Source of the DNA: Planctomycetota bacterium
Lineage (GTDB): Bacteria; Planctomycetota; B15-G4
Direction: 5' to 3'
Assembly (NCBI GenBank): GCA_038212275.1
Contig: JBBQUR010000027.1
Coordinates: forward strand, 1-60,389
DNA: 60,389 nt
Under the pieces are notes generated by a model. It saw nothing but the letters and a program-made list of their open reading frames with translations, did not search any database and was not told where the DNA came from. Each line of letters begins with the position of its first letter. Position 1 is the first letter of the stretch. This document shows positions 5,829 to 55,005 of this stretch, piece by piece. Made by a program: the position numbers and the translations under genes.

Positions 5829-7553
5829 TCACGGCGTGATGGCCTTCAGTGCGTTGCTCAGCGCCACGCCCTGCACGGCCGCGACGTCTTGGACCGCGCA
5901 CTGGAAGTACAGCGACACGGCACTCGGCACGCCGGCCGGCCACGTGAAGGGCAGCACGATCGCGCCGCTGCCGTCCGTGGTCGTCGGCAGCGCCGCCGCG
6001 AGAGGCAGCGTCACCAGCACGCCGCCCTTGAAGGGCTGGGGCATGCTCGCCAGCGAGATGAAGAGCACCGCCGCCGAAGTGGGCTTTGCCGACGTCAGCG
6101 AGAGGTTGCCGGCGCTGCCCGCGGCCAGCGTCCCCGTGCCCGCGAGAGCCGGGACGCCGCTGGTGCCCGGCAGGCCCGAACCGAGGTCGCTCCAGGCCAG
6201 ACCGGAGGCGTCGATGTGCTGGTTCTCGAACACGCTGCCGCCCAGGTCAGCGTCGGTGAACGCGAAGACGTACACGACGCTGGGGCCGGCGATGTTCGGC
6301 ACGAAGTCGTTGTCGTTGGCGACATACAGGGTGTGGTTGGTCGTCCCGCCGATCTCGATGTCCGCACCGAAGGCAATGCCCTCGAGCTTGGCGGGCACTT
6401 CCGCCGCAACGATGCCGTGCGCGCCCAGAAGGGCCTTGAGGTCGAGGAAAAGGTGCTTGGTGACCGCGTAGGGCAGCAGGTTGGCCTCGCCGCTGATGCC
6501 CGCGCCGCCGTTGAGCGTGCCGATGTCCGTCGCACCCGCGAGGTCCACCCTGTAGATGCGCTTGACCACAGCATTGCTGCCGTCGCCCTTGCCCTTGCCG
6601 TCGCGCTCGACCACGAGGAACTCGTGGTTGTTCAGCGCGAGGATCTCGCTGCTGTTGTAGTTCTTGTTCGTGTCGGCAAGGTAGTTGTCGTAGACGTACT
6701 GGTGCACGCTGCCGTCCGCCACGTCGATCGTCACGATGCGGTTGGCGCGACCGCCGTCGCCGCCGTCCTGGATCAGGGGGCTCTGCTCGAAGCCCACGAG
6801 CATGCTGCCGTCGGGCGTGATGGCCAGGCCCTCCATGCCCTTGTTGGCGACGCGGCCGATGGTGTTGCCCGAGATCTCGGTGGCGCCCAGGCTGGAGAGG
6901 TTGGGGGCGGCGAAGTAGCCGGGCAGCGTGTAGGTGTGCAGCCGCTCGCCGGTGAGCCGGTCGAACTTGTAGACATACGGCCCGTATTCGTCGCTGATGT
7001 AGACGAATTTACCGTCGTTCGACACGCGCACGCCCTCGGGGTCCAGGCGCCCGTGGGTGTCGACGAGCGAATCGCCCGCGCCGAAGTTGTCCGAGCGGCC
7101 CGAGAAGTAGGACTTGCCGCCGCCGTTTTCCGACGGCGTGACCGCGCCGTAGCTCAGCGACCCGGTGCTGTAGAGCAGCGTCGTCTTCGAGAGCGTGGGC
7201 GTCAGCGTGAAGGGCAGTCCGCCCGAGGGCGTTTCCGTCAGCACGAGGTCGAGGGCGTGGAAGCGCGAGATGAAGCTCGTGGTGTTGTCGACTCCGGCGC
7301 CACCGGCCCAGGCGACGGCGTTCGGTCCGCGGTCGGGCAGAGCCAGAAATGTGGTCCCCCCGGCCCAGGCGAGGCCCGAACCGATCCCGCCGAACACGCT
7401 GGCGGGAAGACCGCTCTCCAGCGAGCCGGACAGACCGGACAGGTCCGTCGGCGGCGCGATCGCGCCGATGGCGATCAGGTCGGTGCCGGCGTGAGCCGCA
7501 GTAGCCGCAAGGGCGCCGGTGAACAGCGCGACAACCATTCGAAAACGATGCAT
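5829..7553 (-). CDS. Secreted phytase-like (esterase-like activity of phytase) protein with shared C-terminal domain
   Basis: Signal peptide; LPDRGPN, DPEG, ISDEYGP, NKGMEGL, ERD, KLEG, NDNDF motifs; C-terminal domain 5829-6194; GAGGAG RBS. Confidence 0.88.
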   Translation of the reverse strand: MHRFRMVVALFTGALAATAAHAGTDLIAIGAIAPPTDLSGLSGSLESGLPASVFGGIGSGLAWAGGTTFLALPDRGPNAVAWAGGAGVDNTTSFISRFHALDLVLTETPSGGLPFTLTPTLSKTTLLYSTGSLSYGAVTPSENGGGKSYFSGRSDNFGAGDSLVDTHGRLDPEGVRVSNDGKFVYISDEYGPYVYKFDRLTGERLHTYTLPGYFAAPNLSSLGATEISGNTIGRVANKGMEGLAITPDGSMLVGFEQSPLIQDGGDGGRANRIVTIDVADGSVHQYVYDNYLADTNKNYNSSEILALNNHEFLVVERDGKGKGDGSNAVVKRIYRVDLAGATDIGTLNGGAGISGEANLLPYAVTKHLFLDLKALLGAHGIVAAEVPAKLEGIAFGADIEIGGTTNHTLYVANDNDFVPNIAGPSVVYVFAFTDADLGGSVFENQHIDASGLAWSDLGSGLPGTSGVPALAGTGTLAAGSAGNLSLTSAKPTSAAVLFISLASMPQPFKGGVLVTLPLAAALPTTTDGSGAIVLPFTWPAGVPSAVSLYFQCAVQDVAAVQGVALSNALKAITP

Positions 7554-7776
7554 GGAAGAAACTCCTCGTGGAGAAAAAATGGAAGCGGGGAGGATTGAGA
7601 GCGCTGGTGAAGACTGAGGGCTGTTCCCACGAATTTCCGGTGTGGAGGCCGCAGCACACCGACGATTCACTCGCGCTTGACGCGCGTCTCACCGAGACAC
7701 TTCAGCCTGTCGTGACATTTCGTCCGCGAGTGCGCGGGCGGTGACATTTCACGACACGAACCATGGGAGATGCGCG

Positions 7777-10440
7777 GTGAAAGTTCATCCAGTCAGTCTC
7801 GCGATGCTTGCGATGCTCCTGTCAGCGGCCAGCGCCCAGGCCGCCGGCGACCTGTACTTCTCGGAATACGTCGAGGGCACCAGCAACAACAAGGCGCTCG
7901 AGATCTACAACGGCACGGGCGCCGGCGTCGATCTCTCGGCCTACCAGGTGCGCTACTACTTCAACGGCAGCGCGTCGGCCGGCACGACGATCAACCTCTC
8001 CGGCACGCTGGCCGACGGCGACGTCTTCGTGCTGGCACACGCCTCCGCCGAAGCCGCGATCCTCACGGTGGCAAACCAGACCTCCGCGGCGAGCTGGTAC
8101 AACGGCGACGACGCGATCGCGCTCGTGAAAAGCGGCGTCAACGTCGACGTCATCGGGCAGATCGGCTTCGACCCGGGAAGCGAGTGGGGCTCCGGCGACG
8201 CGAGCACTGCGGACAACACGCTGCGGCGCCTGCTCTCCGTCACTGGCGGCGACGGCAACGGCGGCGACGCATTCGTTCCGTCGGCGGAGTGGGCGGGATT
8301 CCCGACGAACACCTTCTCCGGGCTCGGTGCGTACCCGGACGGTGGCGTGGTGGCCATGGTGCTGACCATCCCCGAGATCCAGGGCGCGGGCCACGTGTCG
8401 CCCGTGAACGGCGAGCTGGTCGAGACGACGGGTGTCGTGACCGCCGTCGATTCCAACGGCTTCTACCTGCAGGACGCCGTCGGCGACGGCAACCCGGAGA
8501 CCTCGGACGGCCTCTTTGTTTTCACGTCTTCCGCGCCGGGAGTGTCGGTGGGCAACAGCGTCAAGGTCACAGCCTCGGTGTCCGAGTTCCAGCCGGGCGG
8601 CGCCTCCACGGGCAACCTCACGACGACGGAGCTGGGAGGCCCGACCGTCGAGCTGCTGCTCGCGTCGGTCGCGCTGCCGGCACCCGCGATCCTCGGCTCG
8701 GCGGGGAGCCTGCCGCCGGTGCTGACCATCGATGACGACAACTTCGCCGTCTTCGACCCGGCCTCGGACGGCATCGACTTCTACGAGGCGTTTGAAGGCA
8801 TGCGCGTGCAAGTGCAGTCGCCAGTGGCGGTGAGCTCACGCAACAAGTTCGGCGAAATCTACACGCTCACGGACGGCGGCGCTTTCGCGACGGGCCTCAA
8901 CGCGCGCTCGGGCATCACGATCACCGAGGCGGACGGCAACCCGGAGCGCATCCAGGTGCAGCTCGACGCGCAGATCCTGCCCGGCTTCGAGCCGCTGGTG
9001 AATACCGGCGACCTGCTCGGCGACATTGTCGGCGTGGTCAGCTACGACTTCGGCAACTTCGAGATCAAGCCGACGCAGCCCTTCGCGGTGAGCCCCACGG
9101 GCCTGCTGCCCGAGACGGCGGACGCCGTGCCGGCCGACGACCACCTCTCGATCGCGAGCTTCAACGTGCTGAATCTTGATCCGAAGATCGAGAGCCTTGC
9201 GTGGGTCAACAGCGCGGCGGACATCGATGACGACATCGGCGACCACCGCTTCGAGCGGCTCGGCGTGCAGATCGTCGCCAACCTGCTGTCACCCGACATC
9301 ATCGCGCTGCAGGAAGTGCAGGACAGCGACGGCGCCGAGCTGACCGGCGTCACCGACGCGAGCCTCACCTACCAGACGCTCGTCGCCGCCATCGAGGCCG
9401 CCGGTGGGCCGACCTACGAATACCGAGACATCCCGCCGGTAAACCTCGCCGACGGCGGCCAGCCCGGCGGCAACATCCGCGTGGGATTCCTCTTCAACCC
9501 GGCGCGCGTTTCCATCGACGAGTCGTCGCTCCAGAAGATCGTCGACCCGAACCTCGGCGACGGCGACGCCTTCGCGGACTCGCGCAAGCCGCTGGTGGCC
9601 GCCTTCGACTTTCAGGGCCGGCGCATCACGTTCATCGACAACCACTTCTCCTCGAAGGGCGGCAGCACGCCGCTCTTCGGGCTGGTGCAGCCGCCGGTCA
9701 ACGGCTCGGTGGCCAAGCGCGTGGCGCAGGCGCAGGTCGTGCACGACGTCGTCGCCGACCTGCTCGCCCTGGACCGCGACGCGAACGTCGTCGTCCTCGG
9801 CGACCTGAACGAGTTCGCGTTCAATGAGCCGCTCGCGGTGCTGAAGGGCGAGCCGACGCCGATCCTGTTCAACCTCACCGAGACGCTGCCCGAACTCGAG
9901 CGCTACAGCTACGTGTTCGACGGCAACGCGCAGAGCCTCGACCACATCCTGGTGAGCGCGTCGCTCGCGCCCATCGCGCAGGTCGACGCCGTGCACGTGA
10001 ACGCCGAGTTCCAGGAGCAGGCGAGCGACCACGACCCGCTGCTCGCGCGGCTCGCTTTCGCGCCGACCTGCCAGCCCGACCTCGGCTTTGGCGGCCCGGG
10101 TGCAGCGACACTCGCCGTGTGCGGAGATCCGCTCGGCCCGACGGGCATCGCAAACCTCGTGCTGTCCGGCCTGCCAGCGGGCACCGCGGGACTGCTGTTC
10201 TTCGGCCTGAACGCAGCGCCGCTCGCGACGCACGGCGGGCACTTCGTCCCGTTGCCGCTGCTCGGCAGCATCAGCCTGGTCGACGACGACCTCGATGGCG
10301 TCATCGACCTGCCGATTCCTGGAGTCCTGGTGGGTGTACCGGTCTCGGTCATCGTGCAGTTCGTTTATCCCGACGCGAGCCTGCAGCCGTTCGGCTTCGG
10401 CTTCTCGAACGCCCTCGGGATGGAGTTCCTTGGCGGCTGA
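7777..10440 (+). CDS. Secreted ExeM/NucH-like extracellular nuclease (lamin-tail + OB + EEP domains) with shared C-terminal domain
   Basis: FSEYVEGTSNNKALEIYNGTG (LTD), IPEIQG, GFYLQD, FNVLN, LQEVQD, NHFSSK, GDLNE, LDHILV, SDHDP; GTG start after GGGAGA. Confidence 0.92.
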   Translation: MKVHPVSLAMLAMLLSAASAQAAGDLYFSEYVEGTSNNKALEIYNGTGAGVDLSAYQVRYYFNGSASAGTTINLSGTLADGDVFVLAHASAEAAILTVANQTSAASWYNGDDAIALVKSGVNVDVIGQIGFDPGSEWGSGDASTADNTLRRLLSVTGGDGNGGDAFVPSAEWAGFPTNTFSGLGAYPDGGVVAMVLTIPEIQGAGHVSPVNGELVETTGVVTAVDSNGFYLQDAVGDGNPETSDGLFVFTSSAPGVSVGNSVKVTASVSEFQPGGASTGNLTTTELGGPTVELLLASVALPAPAILGSAGSLPPVLTIDDDNFAVFDPASDGIDFYEAFEGMRVQVQSPVAVSSRNKFGEIYTLTDGGAFATGLNARSGITITEADGNPERIQVQLDAQILPGFEPLVNTGDLLGDIVGVVSYDFGNFEIKPTQPFAVSPTGLLPETADAVPADDHLSIASFNVLNLDPKIESLAWVNSAADIDDDIGDHRFERLGVQIVANLLSPDIIALQEVQDSDGAELTGVTDASLTYQTLVAAIEAAGGPTYEYRDIPPVNLADGGQPGGNIRVGFLFNPARVSIDESSLQKIVDPNLGDGDAFADSRKPLVAAFDFQGRRITFIDNHFSSKGGSTPLFGLVQPPVNGSVAKRVAQAQVVHDVVADLLALDRDANVVVLGDLNEFAFNEPLAVLKGEPTPILFNLTETLPELERYSYVFDGNAQSLDHILVSASLAPIAQVDAVHVNAEFQEQASDHDPLLARLAFAPTCQPDLGFGGPGAATLAVCGDPLGPTGIANLVLSGLPAGTAGLLFFGLNAAPLATHGGHFVPLPLLGSISLVDDDLDGVIDLPIPGVLVGVPVSVIVQFVYPDASLQPFGFGFSNALGMEFLGG

Positions 10441-10463
10441 CGCCAGCGTTGCCGGTCATGCCC

Positions 10464-10514
10464 GTGAAGGGCCGGCGCCGCCCGAAGAGTGCGGCGCCGG
10501 CCCTTCACCTTTTC
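10464..10514 (+). terminator. Probable intrinsic terminator
   Basis: 18-bp perfect stem GTGAAGGGCCGGCGCCGC/GCGGCGCCGGCCCTTCAC followed by CTTTT, just after the nuclease stop. Confidence 0.75.
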
Positions 10515-10582
10515 GTGGCGCCGCGCTGCCGTGCGGCCGCTCGCCGAGGTCGCCTGTGAGGAGGCCGACGGCGGTCGTCCTG

Positions 10583-10612
10583 CTGATTCGCCTGAAGCTG
10601 ATTCGCCTGAAG
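10583..10612. repeat. Exact 15-bp tandem duplication
   Basis: CTGATTCGCCTGAAG x2. Confidence 0.9.
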
Positions 10613-11062
10613 ACCAGGACAGCGTGCCGATCGCCACACGAGAGTGAAAGTTACCTCCGGACGTTGCTGCGCGAGCAGGCGCGCAGCGGGCACGGGCGAG
10701 GCCCGGCCTGGCCGAAGCGGCCCGGCCTCGCCCGTGCCGCGCCTCGATGACTTGCTGCTCTTCATCACGACTAGTTCCAGGGATCTGCCCGGCTCAGGAG
10801 GCGGTGCTCTGCTCCATGCTCTGCACTTGGAAAGGCGAGGGATTTTCCTTACGCCTTACGAGGCCGGCCGCGAGGCCCCTGCGGCGCAGCACTCCTATCG
10901 TGCGACAGTGCGGCGGCGTGACTCCGGCACGTGGGCGCGCGGGGCGATTGTTAGACTCCGCGGCCTTCCTGCCGACCGCGACTCGACGCGCGCTTCGCAG
11001 GACGAGCCTCCGCAGCTCACGCACCTGAATAAATCGCCTCACTTGCCTCACTGGAGCACACC

Positions 11063-13183
11063 GTGAACCACTGCCGCTCGGCACTGCTGCTGGCCCTCAT
11101 CCCCGCCTGCGCCTCGTCGTCCACGCGAACGACGGAGGCGGCGTCCGCCAAGCCAACCGCTCCGGCGGCGCTGGTCGCGCGCGCGACGGCTTCGGGCAGC
11201 GCGACGCCGCTCGCCGGCAGCCACCCGTTCGGGATCATGGACATGCTGGCGATGGAGCGCATCTCGGAGCTCGCCGCGTCGCCCGACGGCACGACGGTCG
11301 CGTTCACGCTGCGTCGCACGGATCTGGAGGCCAACCGCGGCCGCACGGACCTCTGGCTGAGCCTGCCCGACGGCACGCTGCGCCAGCTCACCTCCGACCC
11401 GGCCGGCGACTCCGGCGCGCAGTGGTCACCCGCGGGCGATGCGCTCTACTTCCTCTCCACGCGCAGCGGCTCCTCGCAGGTGTGGCGCGTGCCGGCGGCC
11501 GGCGGTGACGCGACGCAGATCACCAGCTTTCCGCTCGACGTGAACGCCTTCGAACTCTTCGCCGACGGCAAGCGCCTCGCGCTGGCGATGGACGTCTACC
11601 CCGCGGCCGGCACGCTCGAGGACACCGCCGCCATGGATGCGGCCGCCGAGGCCAGCAAAGTGAAGGCGGCGATCTACGACGAACTCATGTTCCGCCACTG
11701 GGACACGTGGGAGGACGGCAAGCGCGGGCACCTCTTCACCTGGACGCCCGGCGGCGCCGCGCCGGTGGACCTCATGCGCGGCTGGGACGTGGACTGCCCC
11801 ACGCATCCCTTCGGCGGAGGCGAGGATTTCACCGTGTCGCCCGACGGCAGCCAGGTGGTCTTCGTCGCCAAACGCATGGGCCGCGAAAATGCGTGGTCCA
11901 CCAACATGGATCTGTGGGCCGCCCCGAGCGACGGCAGCCAGCCGCCGCGCTGCCTCACCGACGCCAACGACGGTTACGACGGCCTGCCGACGTTCTCGCC
12001 GGACGGCGCCACACTGGCGTATGTCTCGATGCCGCGCGCCGGCTACGAAGCCGATCGCCAGCAGGTCCTGCTCATGAACTGGAAGACCGGCGCGACGCAG
12101 CGCCTCGCGCCGGACTGGGACCGCTCGGCCGGCTCGCTCACGTGGAGCGCGGACGGCAGGCAGCTCCTCGTCGACGCCGATGATGTCGGCAATCACAATC
12201 TCTTTGCGCTGGGCCCCGCGCTGGACGCCGTGCAGCAGCTGACGACCACGGGCACCAACACCGACGCGGCGCCCACGGCGCAGGGCATCTTCTTCCTGCG
12301 CGACGACTTCACGCATCCGGCGGAGATTCACTTCCTGCTTCGAGGCAATCAGGTCGCGGTGCAGCGCACGCACATCAATGACGCGCGGCTCGCGCAGGTG
12401 CGCGTCGGCGCCTTCGAGCAGTTCAACTTCCGCGGCGCGCACGGCGACACGGTCTACGGCTGGCTCGTGAAGCCCGTGGACTTCGACCCGTCACGCAAGT
12501 ATCCGGTCGTACTGCTCATCCACGGCGGCCCGCAGGGTTCGTTCGGAAATCACTTCCACTACCGCTGGAACGCGGAGACCTATGCCGGCGCGGGCTTCGC
12601 CGCGGTGATGGTCGACTTCCACGGCTCGACCGGCTACGGACAGGCCTTCTGCGATGCGATCCGCGGCGACTGGGGCGGCGCTCCGTACGAGGACCTCATG
12701 ACCGGCCTCGATCACGCGCTGGACAAGTATCCCTTCCTCGACGGCGACCGCGCCGGCGCCGCGGGCGGCAGCTACGGCGGCTACATGATCAACTGGATCC
12801 AGGGCCAGACCACGCGCTTCAAGGCGCTGGTGGCACACTCCGGCAATCTCGACGAGCGCATGGCCTACTACGACACCGAGGAGCTGTGGTTCCCCGAGTG
12901 GGATCACGGCGGCCTGCCCTGGAACGAAGCCGAGCACTACGCGAAGCACAATCCCATCGAGTTCGTGAGCAAGTGGCAGACGCCGGAGCTCGTGATCCAC
13001 GGCGACCTCGACTACCGCGTCGTCGCCACGCAGGGCATGTCGGTCTTCACGGCGCTGCAGCGCATGGGCATCCCGTCGCGCTACCTGCGCTTCCCCGACG
13101 AGAACCACTGGATCCTCAAGCCGCAGAACAGCGTGCTCTGGCACGACACCGTGCTGGACTGGTTCCGGACTTACATGCGCTGA
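11063..13183 (+). CDS. S9 family peptidase (dipeptidyl aminopeptidase/acylaminoacyl peptidase), probable lipoprotein
   Basis: SPDG beta-propeller repeats, IHGGPQ, GGSYGG nucleophile motif, HGDLDYRV, FPDENHW; signal ending in PAC. Confidence 0.93.
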   Translation: MNHCRSALLLALIPACASSSTRTTEAASAKPTAPAALVARATASGSATPLAGSHPFGIMDMLAMERISELAASPDGTTVAFTLRRTDLEANRGRTDLWLSLPDGTLRQLTSDPAGDSGAQWSPAGDALYFLSTRSGSSQVWRVPAAGGDATQITSFPLDVNAFELFADGKRLALAMDVYPAAGTLEDTAAMDAAAEASKVKAAIYDELMFRHWDTWEDGKRGHLFTWTPGGAAPVDLMRGWDVDCPTHPFGGGEDFTVSPDGSQVVFVAKRMGRENAWSTNMDLWAAPSDGSQPPRCLTDANDGYDGLPTFSPDGATLAYVSMPRAGYEADRQQVLLMNWKTGATQRLAPDWDRSAGSLTWSADGRQLLVDADDVGNHNLFALGPALDAVQQLTTTGTNTDAAPTAQGIFFLRDDFTHPAEIHFLLRGNQVAVQRTHINDARLAQVRVGAFEQFNFRGAHGDTVYGWLVKPVDFDPSRKYPVVLLIHGGPQGSFGNHFHYRWNAETYAGAGFAAVMVDFHGSTGYGQAFCDAIRGDWGGAPYEDLMTGLDHALDKYPFLDGDRAGAAGGSYGGYMINWIQGQTTRFKALVAHSGNLDERMAYYDTEELWFPEWDHGGLPWNEAEHYAKHNPIEFVSKWQTPELVIHGDLDYRVVATQGMSVFTALQRMGIPSRYLRFPDENHWILKPQNSVLWHDTVLDWFRTYMR

Positions 13184-13186
13184 AGC

Positions 13187-14491
13187 TCAGCGCGCGGAAA
13201 GCGGCACGAAGGCGCGCTTGGTCGGCCCGGTGTAGATCTGGCGCGGGCGGTTGATGCGCGTCGTCGTGTCGTCGCGCATTTCCTTGAGGTGCGCGATCCA
13301 GCCCGGCAGGCGTCCCAGCGCGAACATCACCGTGAACATGTCGGTCGGGATGCCCAGCGCGCGATAGATGATGCCGCTGTAGAAGTCCACGTTCGGGTAG
13401 AGCTTGCGACTGACGAAGTACTCGTCACGCAGCGCGACCTCCTCGAGGTTCTTGGCGATGTCCAGCGTCGGGTCCTTCACGCCCAGAGCCTTCAGCACGT
13501 CGTCGGCGGCCTGCTTGAGGATCTTTGCGCGCGGGTCGAAGTTCTTGTAGACGCGGTGGCCGAAGCCCATGAGCTTGAAGTTGCTGCCGTGGTCCTTGGC
13601 CATCGCCACGAACTTCTGGTGGTCGCCGCCGTCGGCGCGGATGGTCTCGAGCATCTCGATGACCTCCTGGTTGGCGCCGCCGTGCAGCGGGCCGGACAAC
13701 GCGGAAATGCCGGCGGCAATCGTCGCGAAGAGGTTCGCCTGGCTGCTGCCCACCATGCGCACCGTGGACGTGGAGCAGTTCTGCTCGTGATCCGCGTGCA
13801 GGATGAGCAGCATGTTCAGCGCCTTCTCGACCTCGGGCGCGACCTTGTAGGGCTCGGTGGGCACCGAGAACATCATGTTGAGGAAGTTGCCGCCGTAGGG
13901 CAGGTCGTTGCGCGGATACACGAAGGGCTGGCCGACGCTCTTCTTGTAGGAGAACGCAGCGATGGTCGGCAGCTTGGCCAGCAGGCGCGTGATGTTGATG
14001 TCCGACGTCGGGCCGGTCGTCTCCGGGTAGTACGTGGACAGCGAGGCCACCATCGCGGCGAGGATCGCCATCGGGTGCGCGTTGCTCGGGTAGCCCTCGA
14101 AGAACTTCTTCATGTCTTCGTGGATGAGCGTGTGCTGCGTGATCGCACCGGAGAAGTCGGCCCACTCCTGCTTGTCGGGCAGCTTGCCGTAGATGAGCAG
14201 GTACGCGACCTCGAGGAAGGACGCGCCGCGCGCGAGCTCCTCGATCGGGTAGCCGCGGTACTGCAGGATGCCCTTGTCGCCGTCGATGAAGGTGATCGCG
14301 CTGCTGCACGCGCCGGTGTTGCCGTAGCCCGGGTCGTACGTGACCGCGCCGCTCGCGTCGCGGAACTTGCGGACGTCCACCGCCGTCTCGCCTTCCGTCC
14401 CCACGATCACCGGCAGCTCGTAGTCCTTGCCGTTGAATGTGAGCTTTGCCGCTGCCTGGGTCGCCTTCGTGGTCGTCGCCTGGGTGCTCAT
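13187..14491 (-). CDS. gltA: Citrate synthase (type I)
   Basis: DPGYGNT, IDGDKGILQYRGYPIE, LHADHEQNCSTSTVR, GPLHGGAN, MGFGHRVYKNFDPR, YPNVDFYSG. Confidence 0.97.
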   Translation of the reverse strand: MSTQATTTKATQAAAKLTFNGKDYELPVIVGTEGETAVDVRKFRDASGAVTYDPGYGNTGACSSAITFIDGDKGILQYRGYPIEELARGASFLEVAYLLIYGKLPDKQEWADFSGAITQHTLIHEDMKKFFEGYPSNAHPMAILAAMVASLSTYYPETTGPTSDINITRLLAKLPTIAAFSYKKSVGQPFVYPRNDLPYGGNFLNMMFSVPTEPYKVAPEVEKALNMLLILHADHEQNCSTSTVRMVGSSQANLFATIAAGISALSGPLHGGANQEVIEMLETIRADGGDHQKFVAMAKDHGSNFKLMGFGHRVYKNFDPRAKILKQAADDVLKALGVKDPTLDIAKNLEEVALRDEYFVSRKLYPNVDFYSGIIYRALGIPTDMFTVMFALGRLPGWIAHLKEMRDDTTTRINRPRQIYTGPTKRAFVPLSAR

Positions 14492-14947
14492 GCCTGCTGA
14501 TCTGCCTTCCTGTATCGATGCCTGTCCGGCCCCGCGGGCCCGACTCGGCAATCGTAGCAAGGCACGTTCCACCGAGGCCACCCGACGCCCGTGCGTTTCC
14601 CGCCGGGCAGTGGTCGCGGGCTCGACCGGCGGGCACCTGTCCCGGCGCCCGCGCCGGATTTCCCGAGGGTCATCCCCAGCGTCTCGCCCTGTCGCCGCGC
14701 GGCAGCGTCCCGCCCCTCGGCCAGTCTCTCCCTCCCTCGGCAGGCCTGCGCGGGGCGGCAGCGACCGCGCTTCTCGCCCTGCTCGGCGGCCCCGCTGCCG
14801 TCGGCCAGCAGCAGCTCTTCAACGTTCAGGGCGACCTGCTTCGCGATCCGTCGTCCCTGGCGGGCACGAAGGCCTTCAGATCAACGACCTGGCTCGGCTC
14901 CATCTGCCTTCTCCCTGCGCACGCATCCTGCTGGGACCGGAGCGCGT

Positions 14948-15340
14948 TCAGCGGGGGCGCTCTGCACTGGCCATCAGCGCTCCGGCTGCAAGCCACTCCA
15001 GCAAGTCCACCGTGTACAGGCGCTGTACCGACCAGACGAAGAGCGCAAGCACGACCGGTGCGGCGACGCGCACCCAGGCGCGCTGCCTCGTGATCATCGC
15101 GAGCAGGCAGGTCACGCCGCACGCCGCGACCGCGACGGCGATCCACCACTCCCCGAGAGCGTCGCTGGTGGACATGAGCGGCGATAAGGGCGCGTGAAAG
15201 CGCGTGGACAGTTGTCGAACGGCGGCCACCGCCCTGAACATCCCCACGCCCGACACTCCGATGACGACGAGCGCCGGCACCGTGAGTGCCCAGCCGATGC
15301 CTTCAGCACGGGTCATTCGATGGGTCCACCAGGTCTTCAT
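14948..15340 (-). CDS. Small membrane protein (about 3 TM)
   Basis: ATG at 15340; three hydrophobic segments. Confidence 0.55.
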   Translation of the reverse strand: MKTWWTHRMTRAEGIGWALTVPALVVIGVSGVGMFRAVAAVRQLSTRFHAPLSPLMSTSDALGEWWIAVAVAACGVTCLLAMITRQRAWVRVAAPVVLALFVWSVQRLYTVDLLEWLAAGALMASAERPR

Positions 15341-15556
15341 TGAAGGATCCCCTTGCCTGCGCCTCGCGAGACGGGTCTTCATCGGCCGGACGCAGGCCGG
15401 TGCCGTCCCTTCCGGCGCGGTGGGCAGCATGGTAGCGCCGCGCTTGTCGCGGGGCACGCCCATCCCGCACGCTGTCTGCGACCACCTTCCCCGCGGAGAG
15501 GATCCATGCCGGTGCCGGCCCCGACGCGCGACGGCCCGCTTCGCGACACGCTCCAT

Positions 15557-18780: not shown

Positions 18781-18825
18781 CCGCGCGCCGGCGGCGATGC
18801 CCCTCGGCTCCGGCGCGCGAAGGCC

Positions 18826-41490: not shown

Positions 41491-41502
41491 GATGCTGGGC
41501 CC

Positions 41503-44716: not shown

Positions 44717-45885
44717 TGGCGATGCGCCTGGTCCACCGTGTCATCGACGTGCTCTCGTCGCTCGGCCTGAGCTGCACGCTGCTCATCTTCCTCGCGCTGC
44801 TCACGTGGCTCGGCACGCTCGAGCAGGTGAACACCGGGCTGTTCGAGGTACAGAAGCGCTACTTCGAGTCGCTCTACGTGGTCCACCACGTCGGGCCGAT
44901 CGGCATTCCGCTGCCGGGCGCGATGCTCGTCATGGCGGTGCTCTTCGTGAACCTGATCCTGGGCGGCCTCGTGCGCATCCGCAAGGGCGCGGCCACGGCC
45001 GGCATCATCGTCACGCACGTCGGCATCCTGCTGCTGCTCGCCGCGGGCTACGTGAAGGCCTACCACTCGGTGGACGGACACACGACGCTGTACGAGGGCC
45101 AGGCCAGCGACACCTTCGACAGCTACAACCGCTGGGAACTCGCGATCCTCGAGAAGCTCGACGACGGCCGCGTGCGCGAGACCGTCGCGCCGCAGGAGAA
45201 CTTCGAGCGCCACGAGGACGTCGCGCCCGCAACGCTCGTCTCCGACGCTCTGCCGTTCTCGGTGGAGCTCTGGTACTACGCGCCGAATGCGCGCGTGCTG
45301 CCCAAGGGCCCGATGGTCAAGACGAGCATGCCCGTCATCGACGGCTTCTTCATCGATCCGTTGCCCATCGAAATGCAGAACGAGCAGAACGTCGCAGCCG
45401 TGTGCGCCGCGGTGACCGACAAGGCCAGCGGCACGCGGCAGGAGTCCATCCTGTACGGGCTGGGACGCCAGCCGTGGACCTTCGAGGCCGGCGGCCGGAC
45501 CTGGGGCCTGGAGCTGCGCCGCGAGCAGTACCAGATGCCGTTCACCGTCGCTCTCGACGACTTCACCAAGGAAGACTATCCGCGCCTCAACATGCCGAAG
45601 GCCTTCTCGAGCGACGTGACCGTGCTGCAGGCCGGCAGCAAGCGCCCCGTGAAGATCTCGATGAACGAGCCGCTGCGCAAGGACGGGCTCGTGCTCTACC
45701 AGGCGTCGTGGGGTCCGTCCAATGCGCGGCCCGGCGACCCGCTGTTCTCGACGCTGGCCGTCGTGCGCAACCCTGCCGACCAGTATCCGCTCTACGCCTG
45801 CATCGTGATCGCGATCGGGCTCGTGCTCCACTTCTCGCGCAAGCTCGGCAAACACATCCGCTCCCAGGCGCAGAGGACCCCATGA
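44716..45885 (+). CDS. ResB/CcsB-like cytochrome c biogenesis protein
   Basis: LSSLGLS..LL..L..LTWLGTLEQ, HVGILLLL, PFTVALDDF...YP....KAFSSDV, ISMNEPL...G..LYQASW. Confidence 0.85.
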   Translation: MAMRLVHRVIDVLSSLGLSCTLLIFLALLTWLGTLEQVNTGLFEVQKRYFESLYVVHHVGPIGIPLPGAMLVMAVLFVNLILGGLVRIRKGAATAGIIVTHVGILLLLAAGYVKAYHSVDGHTTLYEGQASDTFDSYNRWELAILEKLDDGRVRETVAPQENFERHEDVAPATLVSDALPFSVELWYYAPNARVLPKGPMVKTSMPVIDGFFIDPLPIEMQNEQNVAAVCAAVTDKASGTRQESILYGLGRQPWTFEAGGRTWGLELRREQYQMPFTVALDDFTKEDYPRLNMPKAFSSDVTVLQAGSKRPVKISMNEPLRKDGLVLYQASWGPSNARPGDPLFSTLAVVRNPADQYPLYACIVIAIGLVLHFSRKLGKHIRSQAQRTP

Positions 45886-47918
45886 AGATCACCGCCCGAT
45901 TCCTCGCCTCCGTCCTCGGCCTGATGCTCGCGCTGCAGGTCTCCGCGTCCGCCCAGTTGCCGGACGGCATGCCGCGTCGCGCCGCGCCGTGGTCGGAGCG
46001 CGCCATCGCGCTGGCCGAGTCGCTGCCCATCCAGGACGGCGGCCGCATCAAGCCGCTGCGCACCTACGCCAATTTCACGCTGCTGCGCTTCAACGGAAAG
46101 TCCTCGCTGAGCCTGCCGGACGGCATCGCGTCGGACGGCTCGGTGGTCAAGGGCGGCAAGCTGGAGGCGCTGCCCTGGCTGCTCGACACGCTCTTCTACC
46201 CGGAACAGGCCGCGGACTACGCGATGTTCAAGGTGGACGACATCCAGGCCGTCGAGGCCATCGGGCTGAAGTTCGACGGCAAGCAGAAGCGCGACCGCTA
46301 CAGCTACAACGAACTGAAGCCTGGCATCGGCAAGCTGTTCGAACTGGCGCGCCAGTACGGCCGCAAGGAGGAGAAGGAACGCTCCACCGTCGAACAGCAG
46401 GTCTACACGCTGGCGACATCCATGGACGACTACCTCCGCCTGCGGACGCACTTCGACTTCGCGCGCTTCTCGCAGGACGTCAGCGCGAGTCCCGCACTCG
46501 CGGGAGTCTTCGGCGGCGACGAGGCTGCCTTCAGCCAGGTCGTCGCGAAGCTGCCGGAGCTGCTCGCGCTGCAGGCGACGTGGCGCGCGGATCCGGCGCA
46601 CGTGAAGGACGGCGGCGAACTGAATCGCGTGCTGCAGACGGCGGCGCAGCTCACGGACGGCACCGAGGTCCTGGCGCTCATCCCGCCGACCGGCACGCTG
46701 GAGGCCGAGCCGGAATGGCACTCGCCCGGAGATCTCTTCGGTCTTGCCGCGGCCGGCAGCGCGATCGAGCCGGCCTACCTCAGGACTCTGGAGCAGTTCG
46801 AGACGCTCTCACGCTCGATCGAGGAGCCCGCCCGCTTCGAGCAGTCGCTCGCCGTGCTGCACGACAACGTCGTCGCGGCGGCCACCGCGCGCGGCGAGCT
46901 CGAGAAGCTGGGCCTCGAGCTCACCTACTACAAGTCGGACCTCATCGCGAACTCGCTCGCGGTGTACATCCTGGGCTTCGTGCTCTGCGCCGTGCTGTGG
47001 ATGGCGCCGCGCAACAAGCTGCTCTACCGCGGCGCCGCGCTCGCGGCCGTCGTCGCCACCAGCCTGCTCATCGCGGCCATCGTCATCCGCTGCATGATCC
47101 GCGGGCGCCCACCTGTGTCGACGCTCTACGAGACGATGCTCTTCGTCACCGCGGTGGGCTCGGTCCTGCTGCTGGTCACGGAGTGGATCAGCAGGCAGCG
47201 CATGGCGCTCTCGGTGAACACCGCGCTGGGCATGATCGGCCTGTTCCTCGCCAACGGCTACGAGACGCTGGACAAGAAGGACACCATGCCGCAGCTCGTC
47301 GCGGTGCTGGACACGAACTTCTGGCTGGCGACGCACGTCACCGCCATCACCGTGGGCTACGCGGCGGGCATGGTCGCGGCGGCCATCGCCACCGTCTATC
47401 TCATCGCGCGGCTCTTCGGCATCAAGAAGAACGAGCCGGCCTTCGGGAAGAACCTCATCCGCATGACCTACGGTGCGCTGTGCTTCGGCCTCATCTTCTC
47501 GGTGGTCGGCACGATCCTCGGCGGCATCTGGGCCAACGAAAGCTGGGGCCGCTTCTGGGGCTGGGACCCCAAGGAAAACGGCGCGATGCTCATCTGCCTC
47601 GCGCAGATCATCATCCTGCACGGCCGCATGGGCGGATTCCTGCGCGACTTCGGCACCGCCGCCGCGGTCGCCTTCCAGGGCACGGTCATCGCCTTCTCGT
47701 GGTTCGGCGTGAACCTGCTGGGCGTCGGCCTGCACAGCTACGGCTTCACCAGCGGCATCCACACCGCGCTGTGGTCCTACTACCTCTTCCAGTGGGGACT
47801 CATCACCGTATGCAGCGTGCAGTACTACCTGCAGCGCACGCGCGAACAGGCGGTGAAGGATGCGGCGAAGGCTCAGGGTGCCAAGCCGGCTCGCGCCGCG
47901 CGGGCCAACAGCAGGTGA
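45882..47918 (+). CDS. ccsA: CcsA/ResC cytochrome c assembly protein with large periplasmic N-terminal domain
   Basis: LPIQDGGRIKP, GRPPVSTLYE, FWLATHV, WWD domain WANESWGRFWGWDPKENG, GVGLHSYG. Confidence 0.92.
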   Translation: MKITARFLASVLGLMLALQVSASAQLPDGMPRRAAPWSERAIALAESLPIQDGGRIKPLRTYANFTLLRFNGKSSLSLPDGIASDGSVVKGGKLEALPWLLDTLFYPEQAADYAMFKVDDIQAVEAIGLKFDGKQKRDRYSYNELKPGIGKLFELARQYGRKEEKERSTVEQQVYTLATSMDDYLRLRTHFDFARFSQDVSASPALAGVFGGDEAAFSQVVAKLPELLALQATWRADPAHVKDGGELNRVLQTAAQLTDGTEVLALIPPTGTLEAEPEWHSPGDLFGLAAAGSAIEPAYLRTLEQFETLSRSIEEPARFEQSLAVLHDNVVAAATARGELEKLGLELTYYKSDLIANSLAVYILGFVLCAVLWMAPRNKLLYRGAALAAVVATSLLIAAIVIRCMIRGRPPVSTLYETMLFVTAVGSVLLLVTEWISRQRMALSVNTALGMIGLFLANGYETLDKKDTMPQLVAVLDTNFWLATHVTAITVGYAAGMVAAAIATVYLIARLFGIKKNEPAFGKNLIRMTYGALCFGLIFSVVGTILGGIWANESWGRFWGWDPKENGAMLICLAQIIILHGRMGGFLRDFGTAAAVAFQGTVIAFSWFGVNLLGVGLHSYGFTSGIHTALWSYYLFQWGLITVCSVQYYLQRTREQAVKDAAKAQGAKPARAARANSR

Positions 47919-48179
47919 GCTGAAGCCGCAGCCCGCCCGGGGCGTGCCAGGAGGCCAGCGTGGACCGGGAAGCCGTGCGGGGAGCACCCTCCCGTTCCTT
48001 GCTGCCCCGGAACTGCCCCTGATCCTTGACCGGATCGGTGCAGGCCTCCCGTTCGCGCGCCTCCCCGCTTCGTCGCGAAGCGCAACACCGCTTAGGATGG
48101 CGACCATCGGGGCGCGGACGCTGGCTTGATGCTCCGCCGCCGCGATGCCGTCGCAACACACGACAGCGGGAGCAATCCG

Positions 48180-50117
<1,938 letters not shown>

Positions 50118-50125
50118 GAGCCCGC

Positions 50126-50737
50126 GTGACCAGGCCGACCGATCTCACGTTGACGCTCGACCTGCTGCGGCGCGCCCAGGGCGGCGAGAAGCTGGCGCTC
50201 GAACGACTGCTCGAACGCTACTACGAGCGCGTGCGTCGCATCGTGCGGTTGCGGCTCGGCTCAGCGCTGCGCCGCCGGCTCGATTCCGGCGACATCCTGC
50301 AGGACACCTTCCTTGCGGCCGTGCGCAACTTCGCGCGCTTCGAGGTGCGCGACGAAGCGTCCTTCATCAACTGGCTGTCGGTGCTCGCGGAGAACCAGAT
50401 CCGCGATGCGGCCGATCATCACGGCGCGCAGAAGCGCGACGTGGGACGCCAGGTGCCGCTGGAATTCACGGACAAAAGCGGCGCCATCGGCATCGACCCG
50501 GTGGCCAGCGGACTCGCGCCGCCGGGACTGGCCAGCAAGGCCGAGGAGATCGCGCGCATCGAAGATGCCATCGACAAGCTGCCGCCCGAGCTTCGCGAGC
50601 TGATCATCCTGCGCGACTATGCCGGAGCGTCCTGGGAGACGATCGCAGAGCAGACGGGCCGCCCGAGCCCCGACGCCGCGCGCATGATGCACGCCAAGGC
50701 GATGGTGCTGCTCACACGGCTCGCCCGGCAGAGCTGA
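50126..50737 (+). CDS. ECF sigma-70 factor, planctomycete kinase-associated type
   Basis: LLRRAQGG..ALERLLERY...LRLG..LRRRLDSGDILQ, WL..LAEN.IRD...HHGAQKRD, LP...RELIILR. Confidence 0.92.
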   Translation: MTRPTDLTLTLDLLRRAQGGEKLALERLLERYYERVRRIVRLRLGSALRRRLDSGDILQDTFLAAVRNFARFEVRDEASFINWLSVLAENQIRDAADHHGAQKRDVGRQVPLEFTDKSGAIGIDPVASGLAPPGLASKAEEIARIEDAIDKLPPELRELIILRDYAGASWETIAEQTGRPSPDAARMMHAKAMVLLTRLARQS

Positions 50738-50755
50738 GCGACCGAGCGGACGGCC

Positions 50756-50840
50756 TGCGCCGCACCGGGTCGCACCGCGTCGCACCGCGTCACGCTGCGC
50801 CGCGCTGCGCCGCGCCACGTCGTACCGCGTCACGCTGCAC
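50756..50840. repeat. Array of 17 degenerate YRYRY pentamers between convergent genes
   Basis: tgcgc cgcac cgggt cgcac cgcgt cgcac cgcgt cacgc tgcgc cgcgc tgcgc cgcgc cacgt cgtac cgcgt cacgc tgcac. Confidence 0.75.
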
Positions 50841-50854
50841 TCCGCCGCGGGCGC

Positions 50855-52366
50855 TCAGCGCTTCTTGCAGTAGGCGATGAAGGCCTTTTCGAGACCGTCG
50901 AGATCCACCTGATAGACGCGCCGCGTGGCGGCCTCGATGGAGGACACGTCGTTGCTGCGCGTGACACCGACGGCGTGGAGCCAGTCCAGGAAGCCGGCCT
51001 TGCCGAACTTGCTCTCGCGCAGGAACTCGATGAGCAGCGCCGCCTGCTTGTACTGGTCGCCCGCCGTGTCGCCGGTCTTCTCGTTCGTCGGCGAAGAGAA
51101 GATCAGGCTCTCCTTGCGCATGAACTCACCCAGCGGAACGGCCTGGCCCTTCTCCACGGCGCGCGCCGCCATGCCGCGCTCGTTCGGCTTGGAGGACACG
51201 TACTCCGCAAGCCCTTCCTGGAACCACGAGCCGCCTCCGCCGAGTCCCAGCCGGTTCCTGATGATCTGGTGCGTGGCCTCGTGAATGTGCACCGGATCGC
51301 CCGGCGCCTCGTACCACGAGGTGTAGAAATCCGAGTAGGCGATGCCCGCGGTGCGCCTGGCGTCCTCGATCGACATCCCGAAGGTCTTCCCGAGGAAGGC
51401 GTAGTACTGGTCGTTCGTGCGGAACAGGAACATCGGCATGAGGCGGCGCTCGGCGACCTCGTCGAAGGGATAGATCTTGCGGATGGCCGCGTAGCACTCC
51501 TCCATCTTCTTGGCGAAGGTCTTCCCGCCCGAAGAGTTGGTCAAGATGATGTAGTGCGGCGTGCGCAGCACATCGCCGAGCTCGTCCTTCAGCTCGTCAG
51601 GCATGGCGGATTCCCAGCGTTCCTGCGCCTCCGCCTTCGTCCACCTGGCATCGCGCTCCGGGCCGTCGCTCAGCACGCCCTTCGCGAAGAAGGCATTCAC
51701 CAGCTTGAGATCCGCGGCGGAGAGCGCCGGCTGCGCGCGGAGCTCCAGCACGTAGCCCCCGTCCTGCAGCAGGCCGGTCAGGCGCAGCACCTGGCTCGGG
51801 CCGGCCTCGCCCTTTTCCGTGGAGCGCGCGACCGTCGCGTAGGCCGCGTAGCCGAAGCGGCCCGAGAGATAGCTGATGTCGTCGAAGTGAAAGGTCGGGT
51901 CGCCGCCGTTGTCGGGGTCCTTGAGGTTGGAACCGACGACGTCCATCACCTCGCTCGGCTCCTCGAAGCCGAACTCGTTCATCGGGAGCACCAGCAGTTG
52001 CATGCGCACGGCCGACGCGCCGAGGGTGCCGGCCCACGTGGCGCGCACCTGAGGATCCTTGGAGGCCACCTGCTCGGTGAGCGAGAGGCCCTCCGGAAAG
52101 CGCAGCGTGAGCGTGAGATCGTCGAAGCGCCGCTCCTTCGGTGCCGCCGAACCACCGGCCATTGCCGCGGCGCCTCCCGCGCCGTCGGCGCCCTTCGCGC
52201 CGTCGGTGCTCTTCGCGCCGTCGGTGCTCTTCGCGCCGTCGGTGCCGGGCGCGTTGCCCTTGCCGGACTGGGCGCTGACGGGCAGCGCCAGGGCCAGCGC
52301 GAAGGACAGCCCCCATGGCACGACGAAGAGCGGATGCAGCGGGCGCCAGCGAGTTGAACGATGCAT
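50855..52366 (-). CDS. Secreted DUF1570/peptidase MA-like zinc metalloprotease
   Basis: Signal peptide, TDGAKS repeats, TPHYIILTN, HEATHQ...WFQEGLAEY gluzincin motif. Confidence 0.82.
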   Translation of the reverse strand: MHRSTRWRPLHPLFVVPWGLSFALALALPVSAQSGKGNAPGTDGAKSTDGAKSTDGAKGADGAGGAAAMAGGSAAPKERRFDDLTLTLRFPEGLSLTEQVASKDPQVRATWAGTLGASAVRMQLLVLPMNEFGFEEPSEVMDVVGSNLKDPDNGGDPTFHFDDISYLSGRFGYAAYATVARSTEKGEAGPSQVLRLTGLLQDGGYVLELRAQPALSAADLKLVNAFFAKGVLSDGPERDARWTKAEAQERWESAMPDELKDELGDVLRTPHYIILTNSSGGKTFAKKMEECYAAIRKIYPFDEVAERRLMPMFLFRTNDQYYAFLGKTFGMSIEDARRTAGIAYSDFYTSWYEAPGDPVHIHEATHQIIRNRLGLGGGGSWFQEGLAEYVSSKPNERGMAARAVEKGQAVPLGEFMRKESLIFSSPTNEKTGDTAGDQYKQAALLIEFLRESKFGKAGFLDWLHAVGVTRSNDVSSIEAATRRVYQVDLDGLEKAFIAYCKKR

Positions 52367-52592
52367 GTCGGAAGCTCCGCGCCGAGGTGGCGCAGAGTCT
52401 AGTCCCCGCAGGTCATTCACGCGACTCGTGGCGAAGCATCGGTGCAGCCGTTGGCCGCTGCGTGCCCGGGCCGATCAGCCCGCGGCCACCGGGGCTCACT
52501 CGACGGCGCGCAGCGCGCGCTCGACGGCGCACGGCCCGAGCCGTGACTCGAGCCGCGCGAAGCCTGCACGTCGTGCCGGGAACAGCGAGGCC

Positions 52593-53336
52593 TTACTGCG
52601 TCACTCCCTGCAAGCCGTTGCTCGCCGAGTAGCCGTAGGGCGCTCCGGCGTCCTCGATCCAGTACTGGAGGCGCAGCGGCACGCCTGGGCCAGCGCCTGC
52701 CGGGAGGATGAACGGGACGCTCAGCGAGCCCGAGGCATTCGTGACGAGGTAGATCAGCAGGTCGGGCGCCGGCACCAGGATGCCGCCTTTGACCGGCATG
52801 TTGAGGAGCGTGACGCTCGAGACGAGGATCGCCGTCGAGGCAGGATTCGCGTTCGCGAGCGTGAACTGGTTGGACGAGTTGACACTCAACGGCCCGCTGC
52901 CGACGAGGAGCGGCACGCCGGACGAGCCGGGCTTCCCGAAGCCGAGGTTGGACCAGCTGCTCACTTCGGGCGGCAGCACGGAGGTCCACGTCGTGCCCAC
53001 GCGGATCTCGTCGGTGGTGAAGCCGGTCCCGTTGTCGATCGACAGAGACGTCGGCAGCGCGGAGACCGCGTTCACGCCGTACTGCACCGCGGGGAAGCCG
53101 GGCTCCGGCGAACCGATGACCGGGTCGAGGTACATGCGGTAGGTGAGGCCTTGCGTCGGCGTGGTCTTCGAGATCTTCACGACCACGAGCGTCGTCTGGC
53201 CCTGGAGGAGCGGTTTGCTCGCGGCATCACCAGCGCCCTCGCTCAGCATGAGGCCGTAGGTGTACCAGCCGAGTGGCGAACCTCACGCTGAGATGACTAC
53301 GAGCTTCCGAAGGTCAGCGTGGCGGGAGAGGGTCAT
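52593..53336 (-). pseudogene. Disrupted secreted protein carrying the shared C-terminal domain
   Basis: ATG 53336 gives MTLSRHADLRKLVVISA, then in-frame TGA (53285-53283), then GSPLGWY...DEIRVGTTW and the C-terminal domain 52593-52955. Confidence 0.7.
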
Positions 53337-53370
53337 GGCCTCGTGCCTGGCACGCTTGCAACCAGCTTTG

Positions 53371-53387
53371 TGCACGTCGCGTGCCAA
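53371..53387 (-). promoter_or_regulatory. Putative sigma54 promoter
   Basis: Minus strand TTGGCACGCGACGTGCA, GG-N10-GC, ~35 bp upstream of ATG 53336. Confidence 0.68.
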
Positions 53388-53634
53388 GGCCTGCGCCGCG
53401 GCCACGGCATTCCCTGCTCGATTCAAAGGCCGCATGCGGAGCGCGTGCTCCACGCATGCGGATCATGGCGCGCGACGTCGCTCGATCTTCCGTGACCCAT
53501 GACCGATTGCTCACTTGCTGCATGAGCGCACCGCGCATCGCGCATCGCGCATCGCGGCGCACCGCGGCGCATCACCGCGCATCAGCCGCCGAGTGCCGAT
53601 GCCCGTGCCCATGCATGGTCAGGCGCTTCGGCTG

Positions 53635-55005
53635 CTACGGCGTGATGCCCTGCAAGCCGTTGCTCGCGGACAGCCCTTTGCTCGCGCCTGCATCCTGGAT
53701 CCAGAACTGGAAGATCGCCGTGAGACCCGGGCCCACTCCAGTCGGCCAGGTGAAGGGCAGGCTCATGGCTCCTGCGGCGTTCGTCATGAGCGGAAGCACC
53801 ACGAGCGGCGTCGGTACCAGCGTGCCGCCCTTGAACGGCGCATTGAGAGCCGTCGTGCCGAACATCAGCGTCGCGGCCGAGAACGGTCTGGCGCTCGTGA
53901 GGTTGATCTGGTTGGCCGATCCGTCCGTCAGCGGTCCGCTGCCGACGAGGTGCGGGGTGCCGCCGGTGCCGGCCTTCGCATGGCCGAGGTCGGTCCACGT
54001 CACGGGAGCGGCGCCGGTGTCGAGGCGCTCGACCGTGGCCGTCGGGCCGCTGTCCGTCACGCCGCCGATCACGTAGATGTATCCGTCGGAGCCGAGCGTG
54101 ACGCCGAAGTCGTAGCGCGCGATGTTCAGCGACGGACCGATCGTGAGCTTCGGCTCGAAGCCGCTCTGGTCGAGCACGTAGACCGTCGGCGTGATCACGC
54201 CCGCACCGATCGGGCCGATGTTGCCGCCGATGACATACACGCGGCCGTCGGCGCCGGTCACCGCCTTGCTGTCGCTGGTCTGCACCGGCAGGAACAGCGC
54301 GCCCATGGTCTCCCATGTGTTGGTCGAGACCGTGTACCTGATCGTGTCGTAAAGACGGGACCCGCCAAAGGACGTGTAGCCGCCGAAGCCCCAGATGTGG
54401 CCCTGCCCGTCGTAGGTGGAAGCGATGGACGAGCGCGAGTACGGGAGATAGGCGATCGGCTGCCACGTGTCCGTGATGCCGTCGTAGCGGCTGCAGACGC
54501 CCGAGTTGAAGATGCACGCGTCGCAACCGCCGCCGAGCCGGTAGATGCGCTGGTTGCCGTCCACCGCGAGGCCGAAGTTCTGCGGCGGGTGGACGTTGGA
54601 GACATCAGCCGGCGTGAGGTAAGTGCTGTTGACGGGGTCATAAGCGCGCGGCTCCGCAAGGTCGCCGGTCGCCTGAATGAGGCCGCCGAACACGATGATG
54701 CGATGGAGAGCGTCCACGCCTCCGCCCTGACCGACGGCCGGCCCGATGCCTTCGAGCGAGGCCGCCGAGGTCCATGCACCGTTGGCGAACTTGTAGACGG
54801 AGCCGTCCTGGTCGGTGCCGTTCTGCCAGGGTGACCCGCCCACCATGTAAATCGCGCCGTTGTAGGTCACGGCGAAGGTGTTCACCTTGGGAGCCGGCAT
54901 CGAGGGCGCCAGTTCCCAATCGGCAGCGCGGACGGGAATCGCCCACGTCGCGAGAATGAGCAACACGGAGGCGGCCTCTCGAACGAACGCTGCATGCTGG
55001 AGCAT
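53635..55005 (-). CDS. Secreted Kelch-repeat protein with shared C-terminal domain
   Basis: Signal peptide; IYMVGG, IIVFGG, IYRLGG, IWGFGG, VYVIGG, IYVIGG kelch blades; C-terminal domain 53635-53997. Confidence 0.9.
   Translation of the reverse strand: MLQHAAFVREAASVLLILATWAIPVRAADWELAPSMPAPKVNTFAVTYNGAIYMVGGSPWQNGTDQDGSVYKFANGAWTSAASLEGIGPAVGQGGGVDALHRIIVFGGLIQATGDLAEPRAYDPVNSTYLTPADVSNVHPPQNFGLAVDGNQRIYRLGGGCDACIFNSGVCSRYDGITDTWQPIAYLPYSRSSIASTYDGQGHIWGFGGYTSFGGSRLYDTIRYTVSTNTWETMGALFLPVQTSDSKAVTGADGRVYVIGGNIGPIGAGVITPTVYVLDQSGFEPKLTIGPSLNIARYDFGVTLGSDGYIYVIGGVTDSGPTATVERLDTGAAPVTWTDLGHAKAGTGGTPHLVGSGPLTDGSANQINLTSARPFSAATLMFGTTALNAPFKGGTLVPTPLVVLPLMTNAAGAMSLPFTWPTGVGPGLTAIFQFWIQDAGASKGLSASNGLQGITP

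Follow-up and report, generated by a model that had tools for sequence, protein, structure and literature searches.

Why should four otherwise unrelated proteins, encoded within 60 kb of a planctomycete chromosome, end in one and the same module? The question is raised by a stretch of 60,389 nucleotides (the window), contig C27 of a Planctomycetota bacterium (GCA_038212275.1, JBBQUR010000027.1); the assembly has 4.65 Mb, 70% G+C and 40 contigs and is 91% complete. Little is understood of how proteins of Planctomycetota cross the outer membrane or attach to it, and the envelope in this phylum is a matter of long-standing debate. An earlier note on the window, made from the sequence without database searches, had taken the shared C-terminal module for the mark of a candidate lineage-specific sorting or surface-attachment system. 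Here we describe this module, termed tail domain in the following, as an uncatalogued family that is carried by a large set of exported proteins. We consider it about an even chance (roughly 0.5) that the tail domain is a folded handle that binds a single common partner in the envelope, and that the cargo is thereby retained or displayed.

The four window proteins, a phytase-like protein, a nuclease, a Kelch protein and the product of a short truncated gene, have a module of ~121 amino acids (aa) in common at their C-terminal ends, and a stop codon directly follows each copy. All four had been recognized before, with coordinates right to within 3 nt. An alignment of the four tails comprises 127 columns, of which 18 are invariant. 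In pairwise BLASTP comparisons the Kelch tail was 53% identical to the truncated-gene tail (120 aa, E 3e-43) and 48% identical to the phytase-like tail (121 aa, E 1e-34), and the truncated-gene and phytase-like tails shared 40% identity (121 aa, E 2.5e-25). The nuclease tail, already described as more diverged, showed 35% identity to the phytase-like tail (119 aa, E 8e-6), 30% to the truncated-gene tail (E 6e-4) and 32% to the Kelch tail (79 aa, E 0.005). A profile of just the three other window copies scored it at E 0.0046. A leave-out profile, built from all copies of the genome except this one and the 15 most closely related to it (16/137 excluded), recovered it across the whole domain with E 1.3e-7. 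Judged by its sequence, the nuclease tail, though diverged, is a true family member. When the last ~121 residues of each protein were scanned alone against Pfam and NCBIfam, no family was found for any of the four tails at E≤10, in line with the earlier note, which recognized no named family. The same databases do name cargo parts of the window proteins and place nothing in the last ~121 residues.

Signal-peptide-like N-termini were read from the translations of the three intact genes, as the earlier note had it. In the phytase-like and Kelch proteins this N-terminus begins at M40 of the printed frames, and in the nuclease it is located at residues 13-35 of the printed frame. The database form of the Kelch protein (P0154, 456 aa, 100% identity) starts at M40, at about position 55005. 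The phytase-like protein probably starts at M40 as well, at about position 7553, and its tail domain occupies residues 498-619 of the 619-aa open frame (E 2.5e-52). The nuclease cargo consists of a lamin-tail domain (LTD) and an EEP nuclease domain. The gene that had been called disrupted is indeed incomplete. One foreign contig encodes both the closest relative of the Kelch protein and the syntenic relative of this gene, P0157, a 368-aa protein with a signal peptide. Residues 1-139 of P0157 had no match in any frame of positions 52401-53700, so that the short frame of the window is 5'-truncated; the gene is probably a pseudogene.

The abundance of the tail domain in the genome was determined by iterating a profile on all six-frame open frames of 60 aa or more (38,109 in total). 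The search converged after rounds with 117, 133, 136 and 137 frames, and the expectation of many copies genome-wide was borne out. With 3,500-4,000 genes, as estimated from genome size, carriers correspond to ~3-4% of the genes (a rough gene call of this genome yielded 2,596 genes only). None of the 137 frames contains two copies. The domain ends at most nine residues from the stop codon in 132/137 frames, and proline is the last residue in 87 of 133 copies. A strictly C-terminal position, as claimed before, thus describes nearly all copies but not every one. Three copies are located directly after a signal peptide: two in neighbouring giant proteins on contig C4, in each case as a 'YGxGC' variant of the domain, and one in a metallo-beta-lactamase-fold protein on contig C7. 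In a protein on contig C28 the domain is internal and followed by about 175 more residues. The fifth positional exception is a fragment frame on contig C15. A further unusual carrier, encoded on contig C20, is a membrane-bound PMT_2 glycosyltransferase with the domain at its C-terminus. This fusion has a full-length, 43% identical counterpart (824-aa frame) in genome G010 of the same class, whereas a search of reduced sensitivity revealed no counterpart in the 40 remaining genomes of the class (2/42 in total, including this genome).

The cargo is diverse. Sixty of the 137 frames, those within 20 fetched regions, were scanned against Pfam. FG-GAP propellers were found in 18 of them and no Pfam family in 28; sulfatase, DUF642, DUF7948/SBBP and Kelch giants occurred twice each, and LTD+EEP nuclease, CHRD, NHL/Vgb-lyase, PD40, metallo-beta-lactamase and PMT_2 once each. 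After masking of the tails, the 115 carriers in the gene set fell into 60 similarity clusters. The nearest tail domain was found on another cargo cluster in 60/97 cases, and the mean tail identity was 41.0% inside a cargo cluster versus 37.1% across clusters. Tail similarity hence does not track cargo, which indicates that the module has moved between genes. Signal peptides were scored by a simple custom heuristic. Of 100 database relatives that start with M and are 250 aa or longer, 77 had a signal-peptide-like N-terminus, and several of the 23 misses are visibly hydrophobic at the N-terminus. Start positions are uncertain in this genome; here 95/127 carriers scored positive compared to 615/1826 background frames at one setting, and the enrichment at other settings was similar (2- to 2.4-fold). 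The pairing of varied cargo with signal peptides, which the earlier note saw in three genes, is supported for the family as a whole.

The named sequences most closely related to the Kelch protein derive from metagenome-assembled genomes labelled Phycisphaerales or Phycisphaerae. The tail domain was present in 21/21 nearest genomes and in 42/42 genomes of the class (a sample from one order and five families), with 6 to >100 matches each. Across the Planctomycetota, 59/301 sampled genomes carried it at E≤1e-5. Among the individually listed families the distribution is all-or-none: positive families are f1 (7/7), f2 (6/6), f9 (7/7), f16 (5/5) and others with 2/2, 1/1 and 2/2, and the largest negative families are f8 (0/15), f17 (0/15), f26 (0/10) and f29 (0/10); 68 further families were pooled (28/187). 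A search of the profile against 1.84 billion protein cluster representatives matched 21,425 representatives at E≤1e-3, 8,984 at 1e-10 and 304 at 1e-30. Among the matches listed, the domain was at most ten residues from the C-terminus in 147/149 and 113/114 database relatives, one relative carried it at the N-terminus, and the last residue was proline in 172/260. The database relatives are called 'hypothetical' and their tails lie outside every precomputed Pfam family; neighbours in the ESM Atlas are Planctomycetota clusters without names. The domain is thus lineage-restricted and massively expanded, covering one class and occurring patchily in other Planctomycetota lineages.

The structure of the Kelch copy was modelled with AlphaFold2 from a 38-row alignment of diverse copies. 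The model (predicted local distance difference test 97.9, predicted template modelling score 0.90) is all-beta with about 11 strands, and the predicted fold is a generic beta-sandwich of the immunoglobulin (Ig)/FN3 type. Foldseek found no match in the PDB at E≤1e-3, and a profile search of PDB sequences gave chance RecA rows only (E 0.025 and above). The best VIA-align match was a macroglobulin (MG) domain of alpha-2-macroglobulin (7s62_A, 101 aligned residues, root-mean-square deviation (rmsd) 3.0) with Z 8.6, where scores near Z 8 are common for unrelated sandwiches according to the notes of the tool. It was followed by complement MG domains, LILR Ig domains and Ig-like domains of dextranases and pectate lyase; the Ig-like N-terminal domains of dextranases/CITases and of the pectate lyase PelI scored Z 7.1-8.2. 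Paralogues share roughly 35-45% identity. The most conserved positions across the 137 copies are Q98 (100%), G77 (99%), S/T113 (97%) and P86 (95%), and D103 (90%), G58 (90%), N114 (81%) and K57 (77%) are also conserved. Such a polar signature, kept despite this level of divergence, would be expected of a shared binding surface.

Taken together, we favour the view that shuffling has placed a self-folding sandwich of ~120 residues at the C-terminus of a considerable fraction of the Sec-exported proteins. The cargo would first be exported across the inner membrane. The folded domain would then bind one shared envelope partner, either a receptor protein or an envelope polymer. In this way, cargo as different as propellers, nucleases, sulfatases and phytase-like enzymes would be retained, displayed or passed on. 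We infer a common partner, its location in the envelope and the retention or display of the cargo from the features described above. A folded handle is preferred over a strictly C-terminal translocation signal because copies exist that are adjacent to the signal peptide, internal or fused to an inner-membrane enzyme.

The closest analogy to such a mechanism is the dockerin/cohesin pair. Dockerins are calcium-binding helical repeats (PF00404) of cellulosomal enzymes, which bind cohesin scaffolds. Like the tail domain they are small, mostly C-terminal modules on many secreted proteins, and they bind a shared receptor non-covalently. In contrast, the tail domain is a beta-sandwich without a PF00404 match and its cargo is not a cellulase set.

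Several observations weigh against a binding handle. The glycines and prolines may be conserved for structural reasons alone, and non-C-terminal copies amount to just 4/137, which is compatible with a C-terminal signal. The signal-peptide counts depend on a custom heuristic with a high background. No binding partner and no export or anchoring machinery was found in searches of gene neighbourhoods, PMT_2 proteins, exosortase, one barrel candidate and scaffolds; crude self-BLAST of 39 frames (1300 aa or longer) showed no internally repeated scaffold. Neighbours of tail-domain genes are just weakly enriched, namely extracytoplasmic function (ECF) sigma factors (7/20, p 0.013) and Ser/Thr kinases (10/41, p 0.044), both values uncorrected for multiple tests.

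The alternative that survives best is a true secretion signal, i.e. a folded C-terminal domain (CTD) read by a dedicated outer-membrane translocon of the Planctomycetota, a functional analogue of the type IX secretion system (T9SS). Once transported, the domain might be removed by cleavage or give way to a lipid or glycan anchor. This is suggested by the near-exclusive position at the extreme C-terminus, with chains ending at the same structural point and mostly in proline, and by the all-or-none distribution among the listed families. As in T9SS cargo (CTD TIGR04183/PF18962 of type A, TIGR04131 of type B), a terminal beta-sandwich is found once per protein on unrelated, Sec-exported proteins, with tens to hundreds of carriers per genome in a restricted lineage. 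The tail domain differs from these CTDs in its greater length (about 121 aa, roughly 11 strands), in the phylum in which it occurs and in its occasional N-terminal, internal and inner-membrane-fused copies. Such copies are unreadable as a free C-terminal export signal. In the N-terminal and internal copies more protein follows the 'terminal' Pro or Ser, so that this residue belongs to the fold. Furthermore, no candidate machinery was found. On balance a secretion signal of this kind appears rather unlikely.

Membership in the known T9SS, to which the earlier note had likened the module, was rejected. Por_Secre_tail (TIGR04183/PF18962), TIGR04131 and CHU_C gave no match to any of the four window tails at E≤10. 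TIGR04183 had no match in the whole genome, and the control genomes were silent as well. SprA_N (PF14349), GldM (PF12081), PorV (PF19572) and peptidase C25 (PF01364) were not found in the 91%-complete genome; of the controls, PorV (in Bacteroides thetaiotaomicron) and GldM gave matches, and those for SprA_N and C25 were silent. In the comparison of folds, the CTD of PorU (6za2_B, residues 1054-1156) had Z 6.8 (rmsd 3.2, 93 aligned residues) and ranked 39 among generic Ig-like matches, which gives no clear sign of a special likeness to T9SS CTDs. The tail domain could tentatively be the cargo tag of a new, Planctomycetota-specific system for secretion or surface display, a T9SS counterpart built from unrelated parts; we regard this as possible, with the odds against it.

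Other C-terminal tags were compared as well. PEP-CTERM, GlyGly-CTERM and LPXTG signals are likewise placed at the C-terminus of varied exported proteins, but consist of a short motif, a transmembrane (TM) helix and a basic tail, whereas the planctomycete tag is a soluble domain of 120 aa. Consistent with what had been noted before, the tail domains end in a soluble beta-strand, mostly with Pro, and have neither a TM helix nor a basic tail. In other lineages, ExeM-type nucleases carry GlyGly-CTERM or LPXTG sorting tails, and the tail domain of the window nuclease therefore occupies the place of a known anchor. PEP-CTERM (PF07589) had no match in this genome (controls silent), nor was exosortase (PF09721) found in it. 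Exosortase occurred in 25/59 domain-carrying genomes compared to 106/242 of the others. Since no relation was seen in the genome or across the 301 genomes, PEP-CTERM/exosortase was rejected as a route or companion. PPC (PF04151) and PKD/Ig-like C-terminal domains, which are sometimes removed after secretion, also form terminal beta-sandwiches on secreted enzymes. They are confined to few enzyme classes per genome, in contrast to the ~137 carriers here, which represent 60 cargo groups or more, and the tails had no Pfam match to them. Literature searches, covering listings and abstracts, and passages of bioRxiv 10.1101/817700 yielded no description of the domain.

An external ligand-binding module, comparable to a carbohydrate-binding module (CBM) or an adhesin, which sticks enzymes to an outside polymer or particle, would explain the ~120-aa sandwich with its conserved polar and aromatic signature and its tolerance of N-terminal and internal positions. 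The Ig-like domains of dextranases, CITases and PelI among the structural neighbours point in the same direction, but matches of Z about 8 are in the range common by chance. Pfam CBM families gave no match to the four window tails at E≤10, and the scanned cargo is mostly not carbohydrate-active. A single copy per protein, nearly always in last place, does not fit this explanation well, and the inner-membrane glycosyltransferase with a fused tail domain suggests that the partner is located at the cell. We consider such a module improbable. A passive structural domain (spacer, solubility or folding aid) spread by duplication and having no shared partner would suit a generic sandwich without a specific structural relative, and Ig-like spacers are common in bacterial surface proteins, but it is very improbable given that spacers are usually internal and in tandem, whereas the tail domain is single, terminal and shuffled between unrelated cargo, keeps an invariant Gln and other polar residues across 137 paralogues and retains the same architecture in 21,425 clusters.

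Positions of the tail domains, their carriers and further features of the window and of contigs C4 and C20
Feature	Position	Strand	Remarks
Tail domain, phytase-like protein	5832-6197	-	stop 5829-5831
Phytase-like (PF13449) exported protein	5829..7670	-	Pfam Phytase-like E 5.5e-48, residues 93-456
ExeM/NucH-type extracellular nuclease	7741..10440	+	LTD 1e-16, Exo_endo_phos 4e-12, NF033681 5e-56
Tail domain, nuclease	10066-10437	+	diverged two-cysteine variant
Open frame, 894 aa	25391-28075	-	
Open frame, 274 aa	38860-39684	+	
Open frame, 479 aa	43277-44716	+	
Ser/Thr kinase	48126-50117	+	adjacent pair with ECF sigma factor, next to window tail-domain genes
ECF sigma factor	50126-50737	+	adjacent pair with Ser/Thr kinase
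521-aa protein	50855-52420	-	
5'-truncated gene	52593..53249	-	without signal peptide; aligns to P0157 residues 140-368 only
Tail domain, truncated gene	52596-52958	-	intact domain
Kelch beta-propeller exported protein	53635..55122	-	Pfam Kelch families
Tail domain, Kelch protein	53638-54000	-	
PMT_2 (GT-C) membrane glycosyltransferase	55141-56664	-	19 bp upstream of Kelch gene, same strand
C4 giants	C4:144061-155149	-	open frames of 1301 and 1771 aa; TIG, GSDH-like, Kelch; malectin in one
PMT_2 glycosyltransferase-tail fusion	C20:72769-75138	+	polytopic; Gly-Ala repeat tether; domain C-terminal

Candidates for a partner were considered in the surroundings of the tail-domain genes and elsewhere in the genome. 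PMT_2 proteins show a striking expansion with 29 matches in the genome. Six were observed within 5 kb of a tail domain, compared to 6.5 expected at random. As there is no enrichment in proximity and the full-length fusion was seen in just 2/42 class genomes at reduced search sensitivity, a general link to PMT_2 was rejected. Selection by a C-terminal beta-signal picked 36 frames as barrel candidates, and most of the 16 that were scanned in Pfam are TonB receptors, porins or DUF481. Barrel L071, which belongs to no known family, was found in 2/101 phylum genomes with a single-sequence query and was rejected as a conserved partner on this ground. Frames L065, L066 and L074 among the barrel candidates are likewise without a known family, and L070 and L072 have weak matches to Phenol_MetA_deg.

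Some further genes of the window were noticed. Directly downstream of two tail-domain genes and on the same strand, a 521-aa protein is encoded that has a hydrophobic N-terminal stretch, a low-complexity stretch rich in Gly, Ala and Lys, and an HExxH motif (H-E-A-T-H) in its C-terminal half. It had no Pfam match at E≤1e-3 and may be an uncatalogued metalloprotease. Three open frames of 894, 479 and 274 aa have a coding-like composition and had no Pfam match at E≤1e-5.

In summary, an uncatalogued domain marks ~137 exported proteins in a single genome and is found in every sampled genome of the class and in more than 21,000 public protein clusters. A Pfam or NCBIfam model is merited, as it would replace the label 'hypothetical protein' by something informative in thousands of cases. 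With the domain as bait, its partner can be sought. Its presence can also serve to predict which proteins of these largely uncultured bacteria are secreted or located at the surface, and it may be of use as a display tag. If it is indeed the tag of a dedicated system, this system would route roughly 3-4% of the encoded proteins to the cell surface.

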